Positions 32,446-63,180 of a stretch of 64,000 nt of DNA are shown here, piece after piece (position 1 is the first letter of the stretch; each line of letters begins with the position of its first letter). The DNA is from a phage. The translations under genes were made by a program, and so were the position numbers. Below the pieces are notes generated by a model, which was given only the letters and a program-made list of their open reading frames with translations, was not told where the DNA came from and made no database searches. The stretch lies in the NCBI GenBank assembly GCA_025677605.1, contig GCA_025677605.1_4110.1; one strand, 5' to 3'.

Positions 32446-32552
32446 ATATTACTCTCCATGTATGTTATTACAATTTCCATTATATCATAGTTAATTGGGT
32501 TGTCCCAATTATAAAATAAAAGAGAACGACGAATCGTTCTCTATATTTATTT

Positions 32553-49556: not shown

Positions 49557-50069
49557 TTATTTGAGAATATATAAATGTTTTTCAGCATTAACCAGCCTGT
49601 GGTCAATGATTTCTTTGATAACGTTCCAGTTACCACCGCCCAAATCGGCTCCAATTTTCGGAAAGTGTACATGAACATTTCGTTCAATTTTACAGAAAAA
49701 ATTCAAATGCATGAAAACGTCATCAATGGCATCATAGCTTACGTATTTTGCACCATCAGTTCCGTACCATTTTTGAGTAATGCAGTTTGCGATAATCAAA
49801 TCATCATTAATTGCTGAATATGCAATTTGTCCGGTTCTTAGAAAACCCATTCTCTTTTCATATTCTTTATAATCATCATATGCCTTTGGGTACTGCATTC
49901 TGAGTTCTTTTGCAAAACCAGAACCCATTTTACCTTGAGCATTACAACCATGAGCTATAATATGTAATGCAGTATGATCATCAGTTACAGTACTGAATAA
50001 TTCAAACAGATTACCGTGATGTTCATGTATCATGTGTTCTCCGAAAAGAAAAGGACTCGAATATATCAA
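49557..50069 (-). CDS. Putative macro-domain (ADP-ribose binding/processing) protein
   Basis: HIIAHGCNAQGKMGSGFAKEL and FPKIGADLGGGNW resemble the two glycine-rich macro-domain loops; motif-only call. Confidence 0.5.
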   Translation of the reverse strand: MIYSSPFLFGEHMIHEHHGNLFELFSTVTDDHTALHIIAHGCNAQGKMGSGFAKELRMQYPKAYDDYKEYEKRMGFLRTGQIAYSAINDDLIIANCITQKWYGTDGAKYVSYDAIDDVFMHLNFFCKIERNVHVHFPKIGADLGGGNWNVIKEIIDHRLVNAEKHLYILK

Positions 50070-50087
50070 GTCCTTTATATTATTAGG

Positions 50088-51289: not shown

Positions 51290-51375
51290 AACTATAACGC
51301 ATAATCTTATCTCTTAATAGCAATGATGCCCAGATACAATTATTATATCAGAAGTCGTTCTCTTTTCCCAGAGTT

Positions 51376-52509
51376 TTAAAACATTTGTTGAATTGCTTCA
51401 CAACGTAAAACTGAAACAAAATCACGGATTTCAGATGCTTCTAACTCACCGTCTTTTACCAGTTGTTGAATATCTGGAAGTACTACATCAGTGTAACGAT
51501 CATATACCTTAATGATTAAATCTTCAAGGTCTAAATCAATCTCTTTACGTAGAATAAAATATTCCAGTACTTTGTAAAGGAATTCTTCACCGCCGTTATT
51601 CTTGATATTCATATCCAGTAATAATTGTCCCATTTCATTTGGGGTCTTTTTACGGAATGCCTTGATATCATCACGGAAACGTTTGATGTAATTACTGAAT
51701 TTAACGTACTTAACGGGCATTTTAATAGCACCATTCAGTACTGAATCCTCACCAATTTCTTCTTTCTCAAGAAGCACAGACCATAAGAAATATGGCTTAT
51801 ATGCTTCAGTACAATTATCAGAGATATGATCAATGAGTTCCAATGACTTTTTGGTTAATGTAGCATTAAATGCTTTTTCATAGTAACCAAACTTACTTAG
51901 TGTTTTAAGGAACTTAGCTGGCTTTTCTTCTGACAGTGCTTTTTCAAATTCAACATAAACACGGTCTGGAACAAGGTGATTTAGCTCACCAGACGCTACC
52001 ATATCGATTGCAAGTGCTTCAGTAGTCTCGTGTATAGAGAAATCAGAATAACGCGTAGCAAAGCGAGCTAGACGTAATACACGCAATGGATCTTCTTTGA
52101 AGTGTTCGGATACATGACGTAGTACTTTATTCTTGATATCAGCTTTACCACCGTATGGGTCGATGTGAATTTGCAGTACTGGATCATACGCGATTGCATT
52201 AATTGTAAGATCACGACGATACAAATCTTGTTCCAGTGTTACACCTTTTGTATCCACTTCGAAGCCACCGTATCCAGTACCAGTTTTTCGTTCAGTACGG
52301 GCTAATGCGTGTTCGTTACCTTCTGGGCTTAGATAAACTGGAAAATCTTTACCAACCTGTTTATATCCAATACTTTCTAAGTATTTGATATCAGATTCAG
52401 TTGCACCAACAATGACATAATCTTTGTCCTTTGCACGAATGCCCATTAGACGGTCGCGGCAGTATCCACCAACAAGGTATTTTTTCATTCTTATTCTCCC
52501 ATCAACCAA
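51376..52509 (-). CDS. tRNA nucleotidyltransferase (CCA-adding enzyme family)
   Basis: Head-domain motifs GGYCRDRLMG...DKDYV, RRDLTINA, EDPLRVLRLARFA; likely true start MKKYLVGG. Confidence 0.85.
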   Translation of the reverse strand: MVDGRIRMKKYLVGGYCRDRLMGIRAKDKDYVIVGATESDIKYLESIGYKQVGKDFPVYLSPEGNEHALARTERKTGTGYGGFEVDTKGVTLEQDLYRRDLTINAIAYDPVLQIHIDPYGGKADIKNKVLRHVSEHFKEDPLRVLRLARFATRYSDFSIHETTEALAIDMVASGELNHLVPDRVYVEFEKALSEEKPAKFLKTLSKFGYYEKAFNATLTKKSLELIDHISDNCTEAYKPYFLWSVLLEKEEIGEDSVLNGAIKMPVKYVKFSNYIKRFRDDIKAFRKKTPNEMGQLLLDMNIKNNGGEEFLYKVLEYFILRKEIDLDLEDLIIKVYDRYTDVVLPDIQQLVKDGELEASEIRDFVSVLRCEAIQQMF

Positions 52510-52624
52510 TCACGCAGACTTTCCCAGAAGCCTTTTGGCTTGTATTCTGGAACTTGATATTCGTCGGTTCCTTGTTCAGAAACACCCCAATCTTCTTCTA
52601 ACATTGCAATCATAAAGCCTCCAA

Positions 52625-53047
52625 TTAAATTAATCTGTCACGCAAGCGGGATTCATATTGTTTATGTATAGATAGTATATACTGAAATGAAGAATAGTCA
52701 ATACCAAATGTGTCATCAATGAACATATACTGGGCCAGTACTTCAGGTCCATCATCAACTACAGGCAATGAACCTGCTTTTTTTTCTAACACATTCCATG
52801 CAAACTCATCGGAAGTATCAAATCTATGGTATTGTAGTTCTATCTTACTTTTTCTTAGTATAATTAATAATTCATCACCATCATCATATGCATTACGGAT
52901 TTTAATACGTACTGTTCCTTGTAACTGGTTAGTATACATTACGCGATATTGGTTGTATGTGACTAAACCACGTCTTTCAGTACTGAACTCTTGTTCAGAA
53001 AAGTACTTTAACGTTTCGTTGAATTTGGGTATTTTAGTAACGTCCAA
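52625..53047 (-). CDS. Hypothetical protein, tandem paralog 1
   Basis: C-terminus AQYMFIDDTFGIDYSSFQYILSIHKQYE matches paralog 2. Confidence 0.6.
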   Translation of the reverse strand: MDVTKIPKFNETLKYFSEQEFSTERRGLVTYNQYRVMYTNQLQGTVRIKIRNAYDDGDELLIILRKSKIELQYHRFDTSDEFAWNVLEKKAGSLPVVDDGPEVLAQYMFIDDTFGIDYSSFQYILSIHKQYESRLRDRLI

Positions 53048-53450
53048 TTACGTAATCCTCATACTGTTCGTATACACGCATTATACTCTGATATGTCACA
53101 AAGTCAATACCAAAGGTATCATCAATGAACTGATATTGCATAAACTCTTCCTCGGTAGCACCAATAGGAAGTGTGCCGTTTCGTTGATCGTTTGATTGAA
53201 CATCTTCAATGTACATCAAACCTATACTTTCATCTAAAGTGATATCTATCATAAAAACATCTTCACTATAAAACATGTTATATGAACGGATGAAAAGATT
53301 ACCAGTTCTATCAAAACTTGATACATGTGTTTCAACGTAGGTTCTATCTAAACTAAAGAATAAACCAGTACCATCGGGTTTTCGTTGGTCTTTCAATTTA
53401 ATTTCGATAGCATCAAATATCGGTTTAATATTAAACTTTTTCATAAGCAA
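53034..53450 (-). CDS. Hypothetical protein, tandem paralog 2
   Basis: C-terminus MQYQFIDDTFGIDFVTYQSIMRVYEQYE matches paralog 1. Confidence 0.6.
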   Translation of the reverse strand: MLMKKFNIKPIFDAIEIKLKDQRKPDGTGLFFSLDRTYVETHVSSFDRTGNLFIRSYNMFYSEDVFMIDITLDESIGLMYIEDVQSNDQRNGTLPIGATEEEFMQYQFIDDTFGIDFVTYQSIMRVYEQYEDYVIGRY

Positions 53451-53629
53451 ATCACATACTTATTACTATGTGGATCGTAACAGTAAGAGTCGTTCACCTT
53501 AATGCCAGGTTTGAGTTCCAGGGTTGTACCCATTTCAGTACTGGGTTCTGCATCAAAGTAAATCATCACACCAATGCCACCGAGTAAGGCTATGATACAT
53601 ATAACTGCACCTATTGTATATTCCATCAC
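53441..53629 (-). CDS. Small predicted membrane protein
   Basis: 62 aa with hydrophobic span GAVICIIALLGGIGVMIYF. Confidence 0.5.
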   Translation of the reverse strand: MMEYTIGAVICIIALLGGIGVMIYFDAEPSTEMGTTLELKPGIKVNDSYCYDPHSNKYVICL

Positions 53630-53642
53630 TATACCTCTGTTA

Positions 53643-53729
53643 TAAAAAGTAATTATACATTTTATTGTACAATATAAAAAGGTCTTAAAAAGTAATTATA
53701 CATTTTATTGTACAATATAAAAAGGTCTT
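53643..53729. repeat. Perfect 43-bp tandem direct repeat (2 copies), each with palindrome TATTGTACAATA
   Basis: 53644-53686 and 53687-53729 are identical; overlaps the stop of gene 53662-54075 and the intergenic space before 53441-53629. Confidence 0.9.
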
Positions 53730-54075
53730 TCACATTATCATAAGTAATGTTAGATAGATCATAAATCAATGATAACTGAAAAAATGAAGCTTCGTCTATA
53801 TCTACTGGGATTATAACATCATCATCTTCTGCCATTTTATTATCGTAGTATTTTATGTGGTCTTCATTAAACTCAATAGAGATTGATACTGCGTTGGATT
53901 TCATATCTTCAATTAATCCAATCAAATTAGATTTATCATTAATAAAAAATCCAATTCCAACCCTACGGTCCTCTGGATATGGATAGTACCATCTATTAAA
54001 TACTAGACTATCTGGTAAATCAACATCATGTGTTGATACGAGAGATTTTACAATTTCCATCCAAGCATAATTCAT
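53662..54075 (-). CDS. Hypothetical protein
   Basis: 137-aa ORF whose last ~20 codons are encoded by the 43-bp repeat. Confidence 0.6.
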   Translation of the reverse strand: MNYAWMEIVKSLVSTHDVDLPDSLVFNRWYYPYPEDRRVGIGFFINDKSNLIGLIEDMKSNAVSISIEFNEDHIKYYDNKMAEDDDVIIPVDIDEASFFQLSLIYDLSNITYDNVKDLFILYNKMYNYFLRPFYIVQ

Positions 54076-54094
54076 AATTAAAACTCCATAAGAA

Positions 54095-54122
54095 AAGGGA
54101 CAGAATTAATCTGTCCCTTTAT
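54095..54122 (-). terminator. Intrinsic terminator
   Basis: GGGACAG-AATTAAT-CTGTCCC hairpin followed by a U-tract on the minus-strand transcript. Confidence 0.65.
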
Positions 54123-54126
54123 TATA

Positions 54127-54459
54127 TTACTCTTCTTCGTCAGTTACATCAACTACAACTGGACGGTCTGGATGGTTTCGGCGGTGCAATTTAATGCTTT
54201 TGTCTTTACTGAATACAGTTTCCATTTTTTCGAATGAATCGACAATCGCCTTGTATAAATCTGCATCATCGGCAGTAACAGACTTACCACCTGATGTTAA
54301 AGTTACTGCGTACTGTGTCTTATGCTCTTTTTTCACATGAACACCAATATTCAGTACTGAAGAATCACTAAATTTATTTAGAGTGTTTGCTTCTTGATGA
54401 ATTGCGTCATGGATTGCTGGAGTAATATCAACATTACCTTGAATAACTAGATTTAGCAT
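54127..54459 (-). CDS. Ribosome hibernation promoting factor-like protein (HPF/YfiA/RaiA family)
   Basis: 110 aa colinear with bacterial HPF: MLNLVIQGNVDITPAIHDAI vs MQLNITGNNVEITEALREFV, then VHVKKEH...TLTSGGKSV...DLYKAIVDSFEKME. Confidence 0.8.
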   Translation of the reverse strand: MLNLVIQGNVDITPAIHDAIHQEANTLNKFSDSSVLNIGVHVKKEHKTQYAVTLTSGGKSVTADDADLYKAIVDSFEKMETVFSKDKSIKLHRRNHPDRPVVVDVTDEEE

Positions 54460-54473
54460 ACTTCACCTTCCTT

Positions 54474-55400
54474 TTAGATTGAGCTTAACAAAGTATCCGC
54501 TCTGTTTGTTACTTGCCTATACCATAAGGAATTTTTGATTTCTCTTTTAAACTTCTTATGATTTTCAGCTTCAGCACTTCTCCATAGTTTATTAAATGAG
54601 GCCAACTTATCAACACCCATCGTGTAAGCCATGTCAAAGAGAATACGTTGTTGGTCTTTTGTAAGATTTACTGCATTTTTTTTCTTCATTAGAGTTGTAA
54701 AGTCATTATATGTCCTTTTCAAATCTTGAAGTAATAGTTTATGTGCTTGTGCGTTGGTAATACCGTTTCTGTACTTAATTGCATCAGATTCTTTCTTACC
54801 TAAGTAATGTCCATAACCTATTGTATAATTACCTTTCATATCCTTATAAGGATGAAATTTTGAATTGTAGAAAGGAACTCCAACTTTTCCCCCAAGTAAA
54901 CGTCTTTTGTTCTTGGACTGAAATTCAATTGAACCTTCAGCTTCTTTGATGTGTGCTACTATTTCAGGATCATTATAATCGAAAAGTACTACCACATCAG
55001 GTAACAGTACGTCTTTCAAATCCTCTTTTGTTGGGATAAAGATACCCTGCGATGTATGAAGTTTAGCATTAAGATTGATATTCTTCAATACTGTAACGTA
55101 ATCTTCAAACAACACATTATGCGGTTTAAACTTCTTAGCTATCGAATGATAACTATCACCGTATTCAACAGTATAATGTTTCTCGCTGCCTGGAACTACT
55201 TTAGGTGTATACCCTTTAGGTAATTCCTGCTTTTGAATTTGTGTAACTTGCGGTTTTAAATTGTGCACCTGACTTTCGCCCGATGATGATGCACGATCAT
55301 GTTGAGAAAAACCATAAAATCCAAACGCAGCGATGATAACAAGTGAAACTAATAAGCCTATAGCTGTCTTAGTTTTAGGTGTTTGTATCGCTATTGTCAA
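54474..55400 (-). CDS. Endolysin: N-terminal signal-anchor, LysM, T4-lysozyme-like (GH24) domain
   Basis: Hydrophobic anchor GLLVSLVIIAAFGFYGF; LysM-like HYTVEYGDSYHSIAKKF; GNYTIGYGH and LWYRQVTNRADTLL match T4 lysozyme YYTIGIGH and RWYNQTPNRAKRVI. Confidence 0.85.
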   Translation of the reverse strand: MTIAIQTPKTKTAIGLLVSLVIIAAFGFYGFSQHDRASSSGESQVHNLKPQVTQIQKQELPKGYTPKVVPGSEKHYTVEYGDSYHSIAKKFKPHNVLFEDYVTVLKNINLNAKLHTSQGIFIPTKEDLKDVLLPDVVVLFDYNDPEIVAHIKEAEGSIEFQSKNKRRLLGGKVGVPFYNSKFHPYKDMKGNYTIGYGHYLGKKESDAIKYRNGITNAQAHKLLLQDLKRTYNDFTTLMKKKNAVNLTKDQQRILFDMAYTMGVDKLASFNKLWRSAEAENHKKFKREIKNSLWYRQVTNRADTLLSSI

Positions 55401-55533
55401 AAACGCCTCCTTTGTTTGCGTGTTATGATGAGCAATTACAAAGAGGGCTTATGAGGCCATTTGCAAAAGCCTCATCGGACTTTCTACAATACTTTCAGTA
55501 CTGAAAAGGTAACTTTCATTCTGTACATGTAAG

Positions 55534-55562
55534 TAGTATAGCATCTTTCAATTTCATATCAA
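55534..55562 (-). promoter_or_regulatory. Putative sigma70-type promoter (TTGATA-16nt-TATACT)
   Basis: Minus strand reads TTGATA, 16-nt spacer, TATACT; the 14-bp palindrome TTTCAGTACTGAAA (55493-55506) lies in the predicted leader. Confidence 0.4.
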
Positions 55563-55647
55563 GTAAAATCTTGATATTTCTTTTGGTTATAATTATGGGT
55601 ATATTAATACCCATTTTATTTAGCCAATTGTATGACAAACCTATAGG

Positions 55648-56058
55648 TTAGTCGTAGTACGTTCTCCCTACTGTGAGGTGATAACGTAAGTACTTTGATT
55701 GTAATCCTAGTTCATTGCGAATGTGTCCAATGAATTCATCATCGAACTCTATGATAAAGAACGAGCCTGGTTTCTTTTTATCTTTCACTTGAACAATATC
55801 AGGATTGAATTTTATTTTAATTTTTTGACCATCGTACTTTTTCCAGTACTCTGGATTTGGTGGCACTTCACCTCGAACAATACTGACGTGTGCTCCCCAT
55901 TGTGGGTCTTTAACATCAATGTGTAGATCAGTTCTGATGAAGTACTGGTAGTATCTAACCAACTGTAATGGAAGTTGCAGTACTAACCAGAAGTCCTTCT
56001 TCTTTTTCATAGTGCCACGGTCTGGATCATACACCAGAGTTCCTTCCATTTCAATCAT
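55648..56058 (-). CDS. Hypothetical protein
   Basis: 136-aa ORF. Confidence 0.6.
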   Translation of the reverse strand: MIEMEGTLVYDPDRGTMKKKKDFWLVLQLPLQLVRYYQYFIRTDLHIDVKDPQWGAHVSIVRGEVPPNPEYWKKYDGQKIKIKFNPDIVQVKDKKKPGSFFIIEFDDEFIGHIRNELGLQSKYLRYHLTVGRTYYD

Positions 56059-56065
56059 ATTTTAC

Positions 56066-56269
56066 CTATAAATGTACATATATGTTTTTATTTTCAATAC
56101 GAACATATGTTTCCAAAACATCTTTTGGAATTTTATTACTTGTTTTGTACCATGTAGTATTATCTACTAAAACAAAAGTTTCACCGTCAGTTTCACCAAA
56201 TGTACTCAATGCATAAATGAAGTAATTTGGTGCTGCACTACAATAGATATCAGCATTAATTTCAATCAT
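56066..56269 (-). CDS. Hypothetical small protein
   Basis: 67-aa ORF. Confidence 0.5.
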   Translation of the reverse strand: MIEINADIYCSAAPNYFIYALSTFGETDGETFVLVDNTTWYKTSNKIPKDVLETYVRIENKNIYVHL

Positions 56270-56272
56270 ATT

Positions 56273-56407
56273 TTACACCACTACAAAGCTTAACACAACT
56301 AATGTAATAAACACACCGACAATGGCGGTCATTTCTGGATTTGCATCATAAGTGTAGCGAATACACTTAACAAAATCCGATCCAAATTTCTTTAATCCTT
56401 TCATCAT
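56273..56407 (-). CDS. Small hydrophobic ORF (44 aa), not in the supplied track
   Basis: ATG at 56407 after AAGGAAAAAA; encodes MMKGLKKFGSDFVKCIRYTYDANPEMTAIVGVFITLVVLSFVVV; stop 3 nt before the next start. Confidence 0.3.
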   Translation of the reverse strand: MMKGLKKFGSDFVKCIRYTYDANPEMTAIVGVFITLVVLSFVVV

Positions 56408-56456
56408 TTTTTTCCTTTTTTAACATCAAACATAAAGACTTCTACGTATACCACGG

Positions 56457-56843
56457 TCAATTCCCCAAATCTGATAAGATATCTAAGATTATATCATGAA
56501 TTTCGAAATCTGTGTAAGAAAAGTTTCGTGTGAGCTTATCATTAACTTCATCAATGGACAACATTTGATATCCGACTAGTACACCCTGAACACGACTGCG
56601 TTTAACTCTTGAGTACAGGTAAGAAGGTACTGAAATACGAGTCCCAAGAAATGTAGTACCTTCCCCATATAACTCTACTGTATATCGGTTCTTACTTTTG
56701 TTTCTTACATTAACATAGCATTGTGGATAACGTCTAGGTGTAATACTTTCATACAACATAGATGCAAAACTATCTTTAGAATTATAATACTTTTTGACGA
56801 TCTCAGTAAATCGTTTAGTATGTCTTTTTTTCCATCTCATCAT
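56457..56843 (-). CDS. Hypothetical protein
   Basis: 128-aa ORF. Confidence 0.55.
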   Translation of the reverse strand: MMRWKKRHTKRFTEIVKKYYNSKDSFASMLYESITPRRYPQCYVNVRNKSKNRYTVELYGEGTTFLGTRISVPSYLYSRVKRSRVQGVLVGYQMLSIDEVNDKLTRNFSYTDFEIHDIILDILSDLGN

Positions 56844-60421: not shown

Positions 60422-60761
60422 TCAGGAAATCACCGATTTCAGTAGTTGACATTGGACTATCAGCACCATCATACCATAAAGATACATAAGGCTTAATAGA
60501 AGAAGTATCAATGCAAAGACCTTCTCGTTCACATTTAGTACTGAATTCTGTACTGTCACTTGGTTCTCCAATGAGAATATCAAACTCGTACATTGTAACA
60601 TCTTTATCAGTACTGTACACTAGCATACCATCATAAGAAATATGAAGGTTTACATCTGCTTGAAACAGACGGTCAGTGATAGATTCCCAATCTTCTCGTG
60701 GTACTGGATCTACTAAACGTGCAATAAGACCTGCTGTTATGCGATAATCACTCATAGTCAA
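60402..60761 (-). CDS. Hypothetical protein
   Basis: 119-aa ORF. Confidence 0.55.
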   Translation of the reverse strand: MTMSDYRITAGLIARLVDPVPREDWESITDRLFQADVNLHISYDGMLVYSTDKDVTMYEFDILIGEPSDSTEFSTKCEREGLCIDTSSIKPYVSLWYDGADSPMSTTEIGDFLNANQKN

Positions 60762-60784
60762 CCTCTTTTTTATAGTAAAAGAAA

Positions 60785-60812
60785 AGGAGAGTCAAAATGA
60801 CTCTCCATGTTT
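60785..60812 (-). terminator. Intrinsic terminator
   Basis: GGAGAGTCA-AAA-TGACTCTCC hairpin followed by UUUUCUUUU on the minus-strand transcript. Confidence 0.7.
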
Positions 60813-60815
60813 ATA

Positions 60816-62425: not shown

Positions 62426-62839
62426 TTACATATAAACTTTTTTCAATTCTTTGCTGCTTCGTTCAAATACTGTTTCAATGAACTCAATATCCTGAAGAAG
62501 CTGAAGAGTACTGGCATCTGTCTCATTGCGTGACACATTTCTGTACTTTTGTTCAGGGTGATTGAATACCACCTTGACTACACTATTTAGGTCTACAAAA
62601 TTTGACGTTTTTTTCGTATAGGAAGCCTGAAGCTTAATATACTTCCCATTATCTTGTAGATTAGTTTTATGAATTAGTTCTTCAATACCTGTAAGATGTA
62701 AATAACTATCTTCTTCTTTGACAAATGTAATAGTTAACAGTACTGTCTTTTCGTCTCCCATGTCAGAGATATTTTTCACAGCACTAACAATTTCTAAGTT
62801 TGAAAAATCTAAATCTTTAAGCATTACACATATTTCCAC
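62426..62839 (-). CDS. Hypothetical protein
   Basis: 137-aa ORF. Confidence 0.55.
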   Translation of the reverse strand: MEICVMLKDLDFSNLEIVSAVKNISDMGDEKTVLLTITFVKEEDSYLHLTGIEELIHKTNLQDNGKYIKLQASYTKKTSNFVDLNSVVKVVFNHPEQKYRNVSRNETDASTLQLLQDIEFIETVFERSSKELKKVYM

Positions 62840-63180
62840 AAAGTTCTATAAGTGATAATTTCTTCTCTGGTAACAGAAACTTCATTGCACTTAACACCAT
62901 CCGTTTCATACTCGAATGGTCGTTGTGGTCGATATTCTGTTAAACCTCGTTCATACGTACAATGATAATACTTGTTCTCGTTCATGTCAAGAAAAACAAG
63001 ATCAAATTCTTCAGTAAATCGTCTATGCCCTTTACTTTCATTGCAAATGATTTTGTACTGCACATCTGGACCAAAGGTTTCAGTACTGTCATCCCATGTA
63101 CCATAGTCAGTATACACATCATCTTCATCTAACTCTGCAAGATGCCACATTAACTGTGGTAAAAAGATTTTTGATTTCAT
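62824..63180 (-). CDS. Hypothetical protein
   Basis: 118-aa ORF. Confidence 0.55.
   Translation of the reverse strand: MKSKIFLPQLMWHLAELDEDDVYTDYGTWDDSTETFGPDVQYKIICNESKGHRRFTEEFDLVFLDMNENKYYHCTYERGLTEYRPQRPFEYETDGVKCNEVSVTREEIITYRTLWKYV

Follow-up and report, generated by a model that had tools for sequence, protein, structure and literature searches.

A frame-shifting 43-bp tandem duplication at the 3' end of a protein-coding gene in Asteriusvirus jumbo coliphages

We analysed a 64,000-nucleotide stretch of phage DNA (GenBank assembly GCA_025677605.1, contig GCA_025677605.1_4110.1), hereafter called the window. By megablast, the window belongs to the genus Asteriusvirus (121Q/PBECO4-type jumbo coliphages, ~350 kb), and the closest record was Escherichia phage A4, with 98.5% identity over 1.9 kb. 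The genes of the region studied here are all located on the minus strand and are tightly packed, with overlaps or gaps of at most 13 nt. In minus-strand order, we found a lysozyme gene, an HPF/RaiA-like gene, a terminator-like hairpin, an open reading frame that we call ORF-X, a 61-aa gene, two ~140-aa paralogues, a 40-aa ORF and a gene for CCA tRNA nucleotidyltransferase. The features around the repeat are as follows.

54127-54459, minus strand: gene for the HPF/RaiA-like protein
54094-54120, minus strand: intrinsic-terminator-like hairpin between the HPF/RaiA-like gene and ORF-X; the hairpin is palindromic and is listed on the plus strand
53662-54075, minus strand: ORF-X, 137 aa, phrog_36582; its stop codon (53662-53664) lies inside the lower-coordinate copy of the repeat
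53441-53626, minus strand: gene for a 61-aa protein, phrog_4189, with a single hydrophobic segment predicted at the N-terminus; the stop codon overlaps the next gene's start (ATGA)
52491-52613, minus strand: 40-aa ORF

Annotations of phages G17 and UE-S1 list a terminator on the gene strand for the hairpin at 54094-54120, and this hairpin forms the upstream limit of the packed gene run that holds the repeat. ORF-X is mostly 130-131 aa long in relatives with a single copy of the repeat unit, and 126 aa in the short form carried by fEgEco12 and Ecwhy_1. The two ~140-aa genes downstream (phrog_20693) are distant paralogues of ORF-X, and the similarity reaches their C-termini. We found neither a Pfam hit nor a PDB sequence hit for ORF-X, and its PHROG entry reads 'unknown function'. 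Its AlphaFold2 model (mean pLDDT 60.4) gave no Foldseek match at E <= 0.001. In this low-confidence model, the residues encoded by the repeat unit and the extension described below form one C-terminal helix (residues 112-136). For the 61-aa gene, which encodes the small membrane protein of the run, the conserved start is the ATG at 53626 and not the GTG at 53629, and its ribosome-binding site is the GAGG at 53634-53637.

Tandem Repeats Finder, run on the whole 64-kb window, reported an array at 53643-53729 with a period of 43, 2.0 copies, 100% matches and a score of 174, which is by far the top score among its 26 rows. Direct string comparison showed that 53643-53685 equals 53686-53728 base for base. 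The two copies are arranged head-to-tail without a spacer, and the periodicity continues for only 1 base, so that the repeat boundary can be drawn on either side of one 'A'. An 86-bp tandem array that is perfect in this way lies far outside what chance would give. Read on the minus strand, each unit is AGACCTTTTTATATTGTACAATAAAATGTATAATTACTTTTTA and contains an exact TATAAT. The palindrome TATTGTACAATA has only two exact occurrences in the window, at 53663-53674 and 53706-53717, and a fuzzy search detected no further match to the 43-bp unit in the window at up to 12 mismatches. The parts of the array are listed below.

53686-53728, minus strand: copy 1 in the direction of transcription (copy B of the sequence-only reading); the native 3' end of ORF-X, in the native frame ...(K)DLFILYNKMYNYFL
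53643-53685, minus strand: copy 2, the extra copy; one base off the native frame and read as RPFYIVQ-stop, with the stop at 53662-53664
53685-53686, minus strand: duplication junction, where ...TACTTTTTA is joined to AGACC...; the microhomology at the ends of the duplicated segment is 1 nt ('A')
53663-53674, no strand assigned: 12-bp palindrome TATTGTACAATA of copy 2, overlapped by the stop codon of the extended ORF
53706-53717, no strand assigned: 12-bp palindrome TATTGTACAATA of copy 1, spanning ORF-X codons I-L-Y-N
53652-53657, minus strand: TATAAT of copy 2, in non-coding sequence, 25 nt before the ATG of the membrane-protein gene
53695-53700, minus strand: TATAAT of copy 1, spanning ORF-X codons (M)-Y-N, 68 nt upstream of the membrane-protein ATG

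The final 19 bases of copy 2 are non-coding spacer. The sequence that spans the junction of the two-copy allele is TACTTTTTAAGACCTTTTT, and the junction 31-mer is GTATAATTACTTTTTAAGACCTTTTTATATT. An earlier reading made from the sequence only had described two identical 43-bp units, each with an internal palindrome, read in different frames, with the upstream ORF ending inside the lower-coordinate copy and its C-terminus changed, and with a TATAAT-like element on the minus strand. Tandem Repeats Finder and the string comparison bear out the two units and their palindromes, the stop at 53662-53664 agrees with the described change of the C-terminus, and the TATAAT proved to be exact in each unit.

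To interpret the duplication, we compared the locus with relatives that carry the unit once. Copy 1 is the one that aligns with the unit in G17, UE-S1, 121Q and others; in these genomes the unit is single and runs straight into a TAA. In these single-copy relatives (G17, UE-S1, 121Q, PBECO4, slurp01 and most others), the unit makes up the final 14 codons of ORF-X. The gene ends there with ...AAA GAC CTT TTT ATA TTG TAC AAT AAA (A/C)TG TAT AAT TAC TTT TTA TAA, which translates to ...KDLFILYNK(M/L)YNYFL-stop, the stop standing directly after the unit. Since the unit is the end of ORF-X in these phages, the palindrome encodes I-L-Y-N and the TATAAT spans the Y-N codons. After the ORF-X stop comes the ribosome-binding site, and the small membrane-protein gene begins with its ATG 13 nt past that stop.

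The window has two runs of the 43 nt that begin with AGACC... and end with ...TTTTTA. Because 43 = 3x14+1, translation that runs from copy 1 into copy 2 is one base out of register. The product of the two-copy gene thus ends ...YNYFL-RPFYIVQ-stop and has 137 aa, whereas most relatives make one of 130-131 aa. Between the ORF-X stop and the next ATG there are 35 nt with two copies and 13 nt with one (+22 bases), and the ribosome-binding site and coding sequence of the next gene are unaltered. The phrog_36582 profile match stops at residue 130 and the paralogues end at the equivalent position, indicating that the extension is foreign to the family. As a practical consequence, gene callers give two protein lengths (130/131 vs 137/138 aa) for one gene.

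To determine the distribution of the duplication, a 116-nt segment was searched with blastn against 50,697 phage records. We identified 35 matching records (33 distinct phages), with the segment at one place per genome except in one low-quality relative record. Two copies (a span of ~115 nt) were found in A4, BF17, vB_Ec-M-J, WPEC5 and EC.P1, and one copy (63-73 nt) in the rest; these calls from blastn spans were confirmed on the fetched loci. The single-copy group comprises about 28 GenBank Asteriusvirus genomes and one metagenome contig. The sequence-only reading had proposed a comparison with related phages, and both one-copy and two-copy genomes are indeed present among them.

A protein search of 5.8 billion proteins, clustered at 90% identity, matched 13 clusters. 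The ending RPFYI(V/G)Q is present in 8 of these and in 27 of their 75 member sequences. The contigs behind the clusters add six two-copy alleles, from three NCBI E. coli assemblies, two ENA metagenome contigs and one Logan contig. In the E. coli assemblies (GCA_011911785.2, GCA_973721985.1 and GCA_036253495.1), the two copies lie on phage-sized contigs. Wider sampling returned only 121Q itself from IMG/VR and one single-copy contig from the JGI metagenomes, and the unit had no match in GTDB genomes, RefSeq E. coli complete genomes or PLSDB plasmids. The two-copy carriers came from different countries and sources on several continents.

All two-copy alleles, 12 of 12 with the window included, share the identical junction of TACTTTTTA to AGACC. 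A duplication of 43 nt that was shifted along the gene would leave a different sequence, so we infer one event and not recurrence. In a neighbour-joining tree of the 5' part of ORF-X that took in six carriers (the window, A4, BF17, vB_Ec-M-J, WPEC5 and EC.P1), all six formed one clade, with two sub-clades ~12.5% apart. In a column-by-column alignment, the window and BF17 agree at every position over ~160 nt around the repeat. The flanking patches on either side of the repeat diverge by up to ~30% and group with different relatives.

In many relatives, megablast homology stops exactly at the edge of the unit, at window positions 53642 and 53686/53687 (query positions 1043 and 1087/1088). Homology is lost there because some relatives carry an extra module between ORF-X and the membrane-protein gene. 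When window 52491-53626 was compared with loci L006, L007, L008, L014, L018 and L019, this module was seen to consist of a 123-aa gene (TTG start) and a 41-aa gene, the product of the latter being a paralogue of the window's 40-aa ORF at 52491-52613. JNE01 and Turkey5 are without the two ~140-aa paralogues. On this comparison of gene content, the locus is an apparent small hot spot of accessory-gene gain and loss. We also considered that the repeat might be the scar of a deleted gene module, and rejected this since no unit-like sequence precedes the membrane-protein gene in phages with the 123-aa and 41-aa genes.

In WPEC5 and EC.P1, copy 1 ends ...TACTTTTTA ('TTTTTA') as in the window, and copy 2 ends ...TACTTTATATGA. 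This 'TTTATATGA' end of copy 2 belongs with the alternative downstream module, which indicates a crossover within copy 2. Furthermore, the metagenome allele L022 has the duplication together with an ORF-X that is TH47-like and a downstream gene that is 121Q-like. The mosaic flanks, the crossover in copy 2 and the mixed allele L022 together suggest that the two-copy allele was carried between backgrounds by homologous recombination. The duplication can thus serve as a lineage and recombination marker for a small allele that crosses mosaic Asteriusvirus genomes.

Taken together, these data suggest that the 3' end of a protein-coding gene was duplicated in tandem and that the repeat is probably a heritable variant which the phages tolerate, rather than a regulatory switch. 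It would have arisen once in an Asteriusvirus lineage, by replication slippage or by illegitimate or unequal recombination. The microhomology of 1 nt ('A') at the segment ends fits illegitimate joining and is not diagnostic of the mechanism. As read from the alleles, the frame shift swaps the native stop for RPFYIVQ-stop and lengthens the protein from ~130-131 to 137 aa, and the comparison of flanks supports a later move of the allele onto other backgrounds, presumably by homologous recombination. The extra copy itself would be near-neutral, with no demonstrable function of its own, and would decay slowly. The sequence-only reading had offered a recent slippage event as one explanation. The kind of event stands, and its recency does not, as the same junction occurs in 12 assemblies with mosaic backgrounds.

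The changes seen among two-copy alleles, although small in number, fall almost all in copy 2. They comprise a T>G in the palindrome (L022), an additional T in the T-run (vB_Ec-M-J), the alternative 3' end of WPEC5 and EC.P1, and a 12-nt deletion in L025 that takes out the TATAAT. Copy 1 has one A>G (EC.P1). This bias points to relaxed constraint on the extra copy. Synonymous variants were found in 27% of the codon columns of the unit, compared with 36-40% upstream, and hence no overlapping constraint at the DNA level is visible. Against a neutral reading, most carriers retain two copies that are 100% identical, and phages from several continents have kept the allele. A 43-bp direct repeat should be readily lost in a recombination-proficient phage, and weak positive selection or frequent homogenisation of the copies may also have played a part. 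The carrier clade is also shallow around the repeat, as seen in the ~160 nt shared by the window and BF17, leaving little time for visible decay. The locus offers a clean natural case of a frame-shifting tandem duplication that would be tolerated because it lies at a gene end.

Alternatively, the unit could be a weak promoter (-10 TATAAT) and/or a palindromic operator whose doubling alters the expression of 53441-53626 and the later genes, as the sequence-only reading had suggested with a regulatory operator pair. We consider this unlikely. It would explain the exact TATAAT at two distances before the membrane-protein ATG, and the retention of ...ATGTATAATTACTTT... in the most divergent relatives and before both alternative downstream modules. 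The junction also creates TTAAGA-18-TAAAAT, which matches the sigma-70 consensus at 9/12 positions; strong sigma-70-like sites are present in the 3' ends of both downstream paralogues, so promoters in gene ends may be a habit of the locus; and with an intrinsic terminator just upstream of ORF-X, the downstream genes might need a promoter of their own. However, a sigma-70 scan (-35 and -10 hexamers spaced by 16-18 nt, at least 4/6 each) listed no site with the unit's TATAAT, for which the best -35 at 17 nt is TTTTTA (3/6), and the repeat yielded only weak 9/12 sites on other hexamers. Promoter-like hits in the region numbered 15, compared with 15.6 +/- 3.4 in shuffles. The palindrome is coding (I-L-Y-N) and is broken in the most distant relatives, JNE01 and Turkey5 (AAATTGTACGAT / AAATTGTATGAT). 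At up to 2 mismatches it occurs 9 times in the window against 11.2 expected, and a 12-bp palindrome alone is unremarkable given that the window holds 35 perfect ones (21.6 +/- 4.3 in Markov-1 simulations). The unit is confined to one locus by both the fuzzy search of the window and blastn, apart from the low-quality record, its synonymous sites are not extra-conserved, the natural variant L025 is without the TATAAT of copy 2, and one copy suffices for most of the genus. Neither the proposed operator pair nor a promoter pair found support.

A different possibility is that the variant was kept for its 7-residue C-terminal tail, or for looser coupling between the genes (stop 35 instead of 13 nt before the ATG) that alters membrane-protein synthesis. 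The tight packing of the genes is consistent with translational coupling, RPFYIVQ is constant in 11 of 12 carriers, and the extended form makes up a sizeable share of the public member sequences. Still, RPFYIVQ is a frame-shifted reading of ORF-X's own 3' end with no homologue in the family or the paralogues, one carrier already has V>G within it, the low-confidence model of ORF-X (pLDDT 60) offers no functional handle, and the next gene's ribosome-binding site is intact in both alleles, which leaves independent initiation possible. We regard this explanation as quite improbable. We likewise give little weight to a broader version, in which selection keeps the two-copy state to tune the membrane-protein operon through a doubled weak promoter or operator or through translational uncoupling, with the unit perhaps a preferred crossover point that shuffles accessory genes. 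Least of all do we expect a sequencing or assembly artefact with a true one-copy genome. One observation in its favour is the one-copy Logan contig L023 (SRR9693738), which shows no mismatch along 4 kb when set against the two-copy NCBI assembly L024 in the region equivalent to window 51373-56786, so copy number may be misreported in at least one of the two. But perfect short tandem repeats get collapsed by assemblers and are not invented, and the same junction is present in 12 independent assemblies from different groups and pipelines, some with private mutations in copy 2. In light of these assemblies and mutations, an artefact is effectively excluded. A resequenced genome with a single copy, which the sequence-only reading had named as grounds for discarding the duplication, is likewise very unlikely given so many independent two-copy assemblies.

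Logan contigs are built with k=31, which is shorter than the 43-bp unit, and the single copy of L023 may be a collapsed repeat and not a revertant. The sole Logan contig that keeps a second copy has copy 2 truncated to 25 repeated bases, consistent with k-mer collapse. Because the repeat is longer than the k of some large assembly resources, its copy number may be under-reported there.

We also examined other possible roles of the repeat at the level of RNA and transcription. The RNA fold z-score of the repeat was -1.45, with no G+C-rich hairpin, no stem-loop and no significant RNA structure in it; in the DNA fold the two palindromes pair with each other, and this alone accounts for the z-score of -2.88. 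No intrinsic terminator was reported in the repeat, the nearest being that at 54094-54120, and Rfam gave no match with E < 0.1 in 52400-55600. A -1 frameshift fusion of ORF-X and the membrane protein was set aside: although the third frame is open, it comes without a canonical slippery heptamer, and vB_Ec-M-J does not keep the frame relation. A literature search limited to promoter motifs and the genus yielded no transcription-start data, only predicted motifs for the related phage CBB. The promoter classes predicted there for Rak2-like phages are RpoD-like, TGAAACG...TATA and ATAAATA (PMC5259590). We set these CBB-type motifs aside, as TGAAACG is not tied to intergenic regions in the window and the unit fits only a loose pattern.

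Replication slippage or illegitimate recombination can generate short tandem duplications, and the rII genes of phage T4 supply the classical cases, along with deletions between short repeats. The duplication in the window resembles them in several ways: its identical copies stand head to tail, microhomology at its ends is minimal, a length not divisible by 3 shifts the frame, close relatives are polymorphic for its presence, and recombination between the copies could remove it. Unlike the classical cases, it lies at the very end of a gene, where the frame shift costs only a 7-residue tail and does not inactivate the gene, and it has persisted and spread across mosaic genomes. Judged by its sequence features, the event behaves like a further instance of this known kind.

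Two regulatory systems offer partial parallels. The PeSL (promoter-early stem-loop) elements, reportedly described by Arbiol et al. in 2010, are said to be mobile regulatory cassettes of T4-type phages. Like them, the unit is a conserved short sequence at the boundary of an exchangeable module, with the copy-2 crossover of WPEC5 and EC.P1 as an example; unlike them, it is not dispersed, has neither a stem-loop nor a promoter that passes the scan, and is mostly coding. The two identical 12-bp palindromes lie upstream of a gene at a spacing of 43 bp, or about four helical turns, and in this recall the paired palindromic operators of phage repressors, such as the OR and OL sites of lambda. In contrast to these, the spacing is simply the period of the duplication, the palindrome is coding in relatives and not conserved in distant ones, and there are no further copies.

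Several observations were made beside the duplication. Two sigma-70-like sites were found downstream on the minus strand, TTGACT-16-TATAAT (11/12) at 53080-53107 and TTGACT-16-TATACT (10/12) at 52674-52701. They occupy homologous positions in the 3' ends of the ~140-aa paralogues, each just upstream of the next gene. For the site at 53080-53107, the only one within the alignment, both hexamers are constant in seven aligned relatives while neighbouring positions vary. These two sites are possible internal promoters embedded in coding sequence.

A recurrent layout was noted in minus-strand intergenic regions near 54094-54125, 62830-62880, 50040-50085, 60760-60815 and 32450-32550. A stop is followed by an A+T-rich TAATATAA(T/A)-like sequence that leads directly into a G+C-rich terminator hairpin, after which come a T-run and the next ribosome-binding site. 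The TATAA(T/A) 5' of these intergenic hairpins resembles a -10 or late-promoter element, and if so, transcripts would start inside the hairpin. Separately, an indel of ~211 nt near window 55400-55650 distinguishes the window from L023, L025 and apparently L024. Its position is ~2 kb transcriptionally upstream of the repeat, where it separates the lysozyme gene from the gene before it.

Finally, we found that AGTACT is strongly enriched in the window, an enrichment for which a limited literature search returned no description. Of its 127 occurrences, 121 are in coding sequence, compared with 35.9 +/- 5.6 under synonymous-codon shuffling (z about 15), and they are spread over the three reading frames (62/16/43). 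The longer CAGTACTG occurs 28 times vs 2.8. The 12-bp palindrome TTCAGTACTGAA has 7 exact occurrences (9963, 38872, 51734, 52976, 54350, 55494 and 58883) and 16 at up to 1 mismatch vs 0.39 expected, and it sits in unrelated genes in two frames (F-S-T-E and S-V-L-N). The density of AGTACT is similar in relatives (8-17 per ~5 kb), although their homologous sites often carry an imperfect 12-mer. The palindrome of the 43-bp repeat has a TGTACA core and does not share in this enrichment. The enrichment suggests a site of protein binding, modification or nicking. The opposite trend was seen for GGTACC (a KpnI/Acc65I-type site), with 0 in coding sequence vs 17.2 +/- 3.1 under synonymous shuffling (z = -5.5); CGTACG also occurs 0 times vs 3.4 expected. 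The absence of GGTACC looks like restriction-site avoidance, and together with the AGTACT enrichment it may be a more interesting lead than the duplication.
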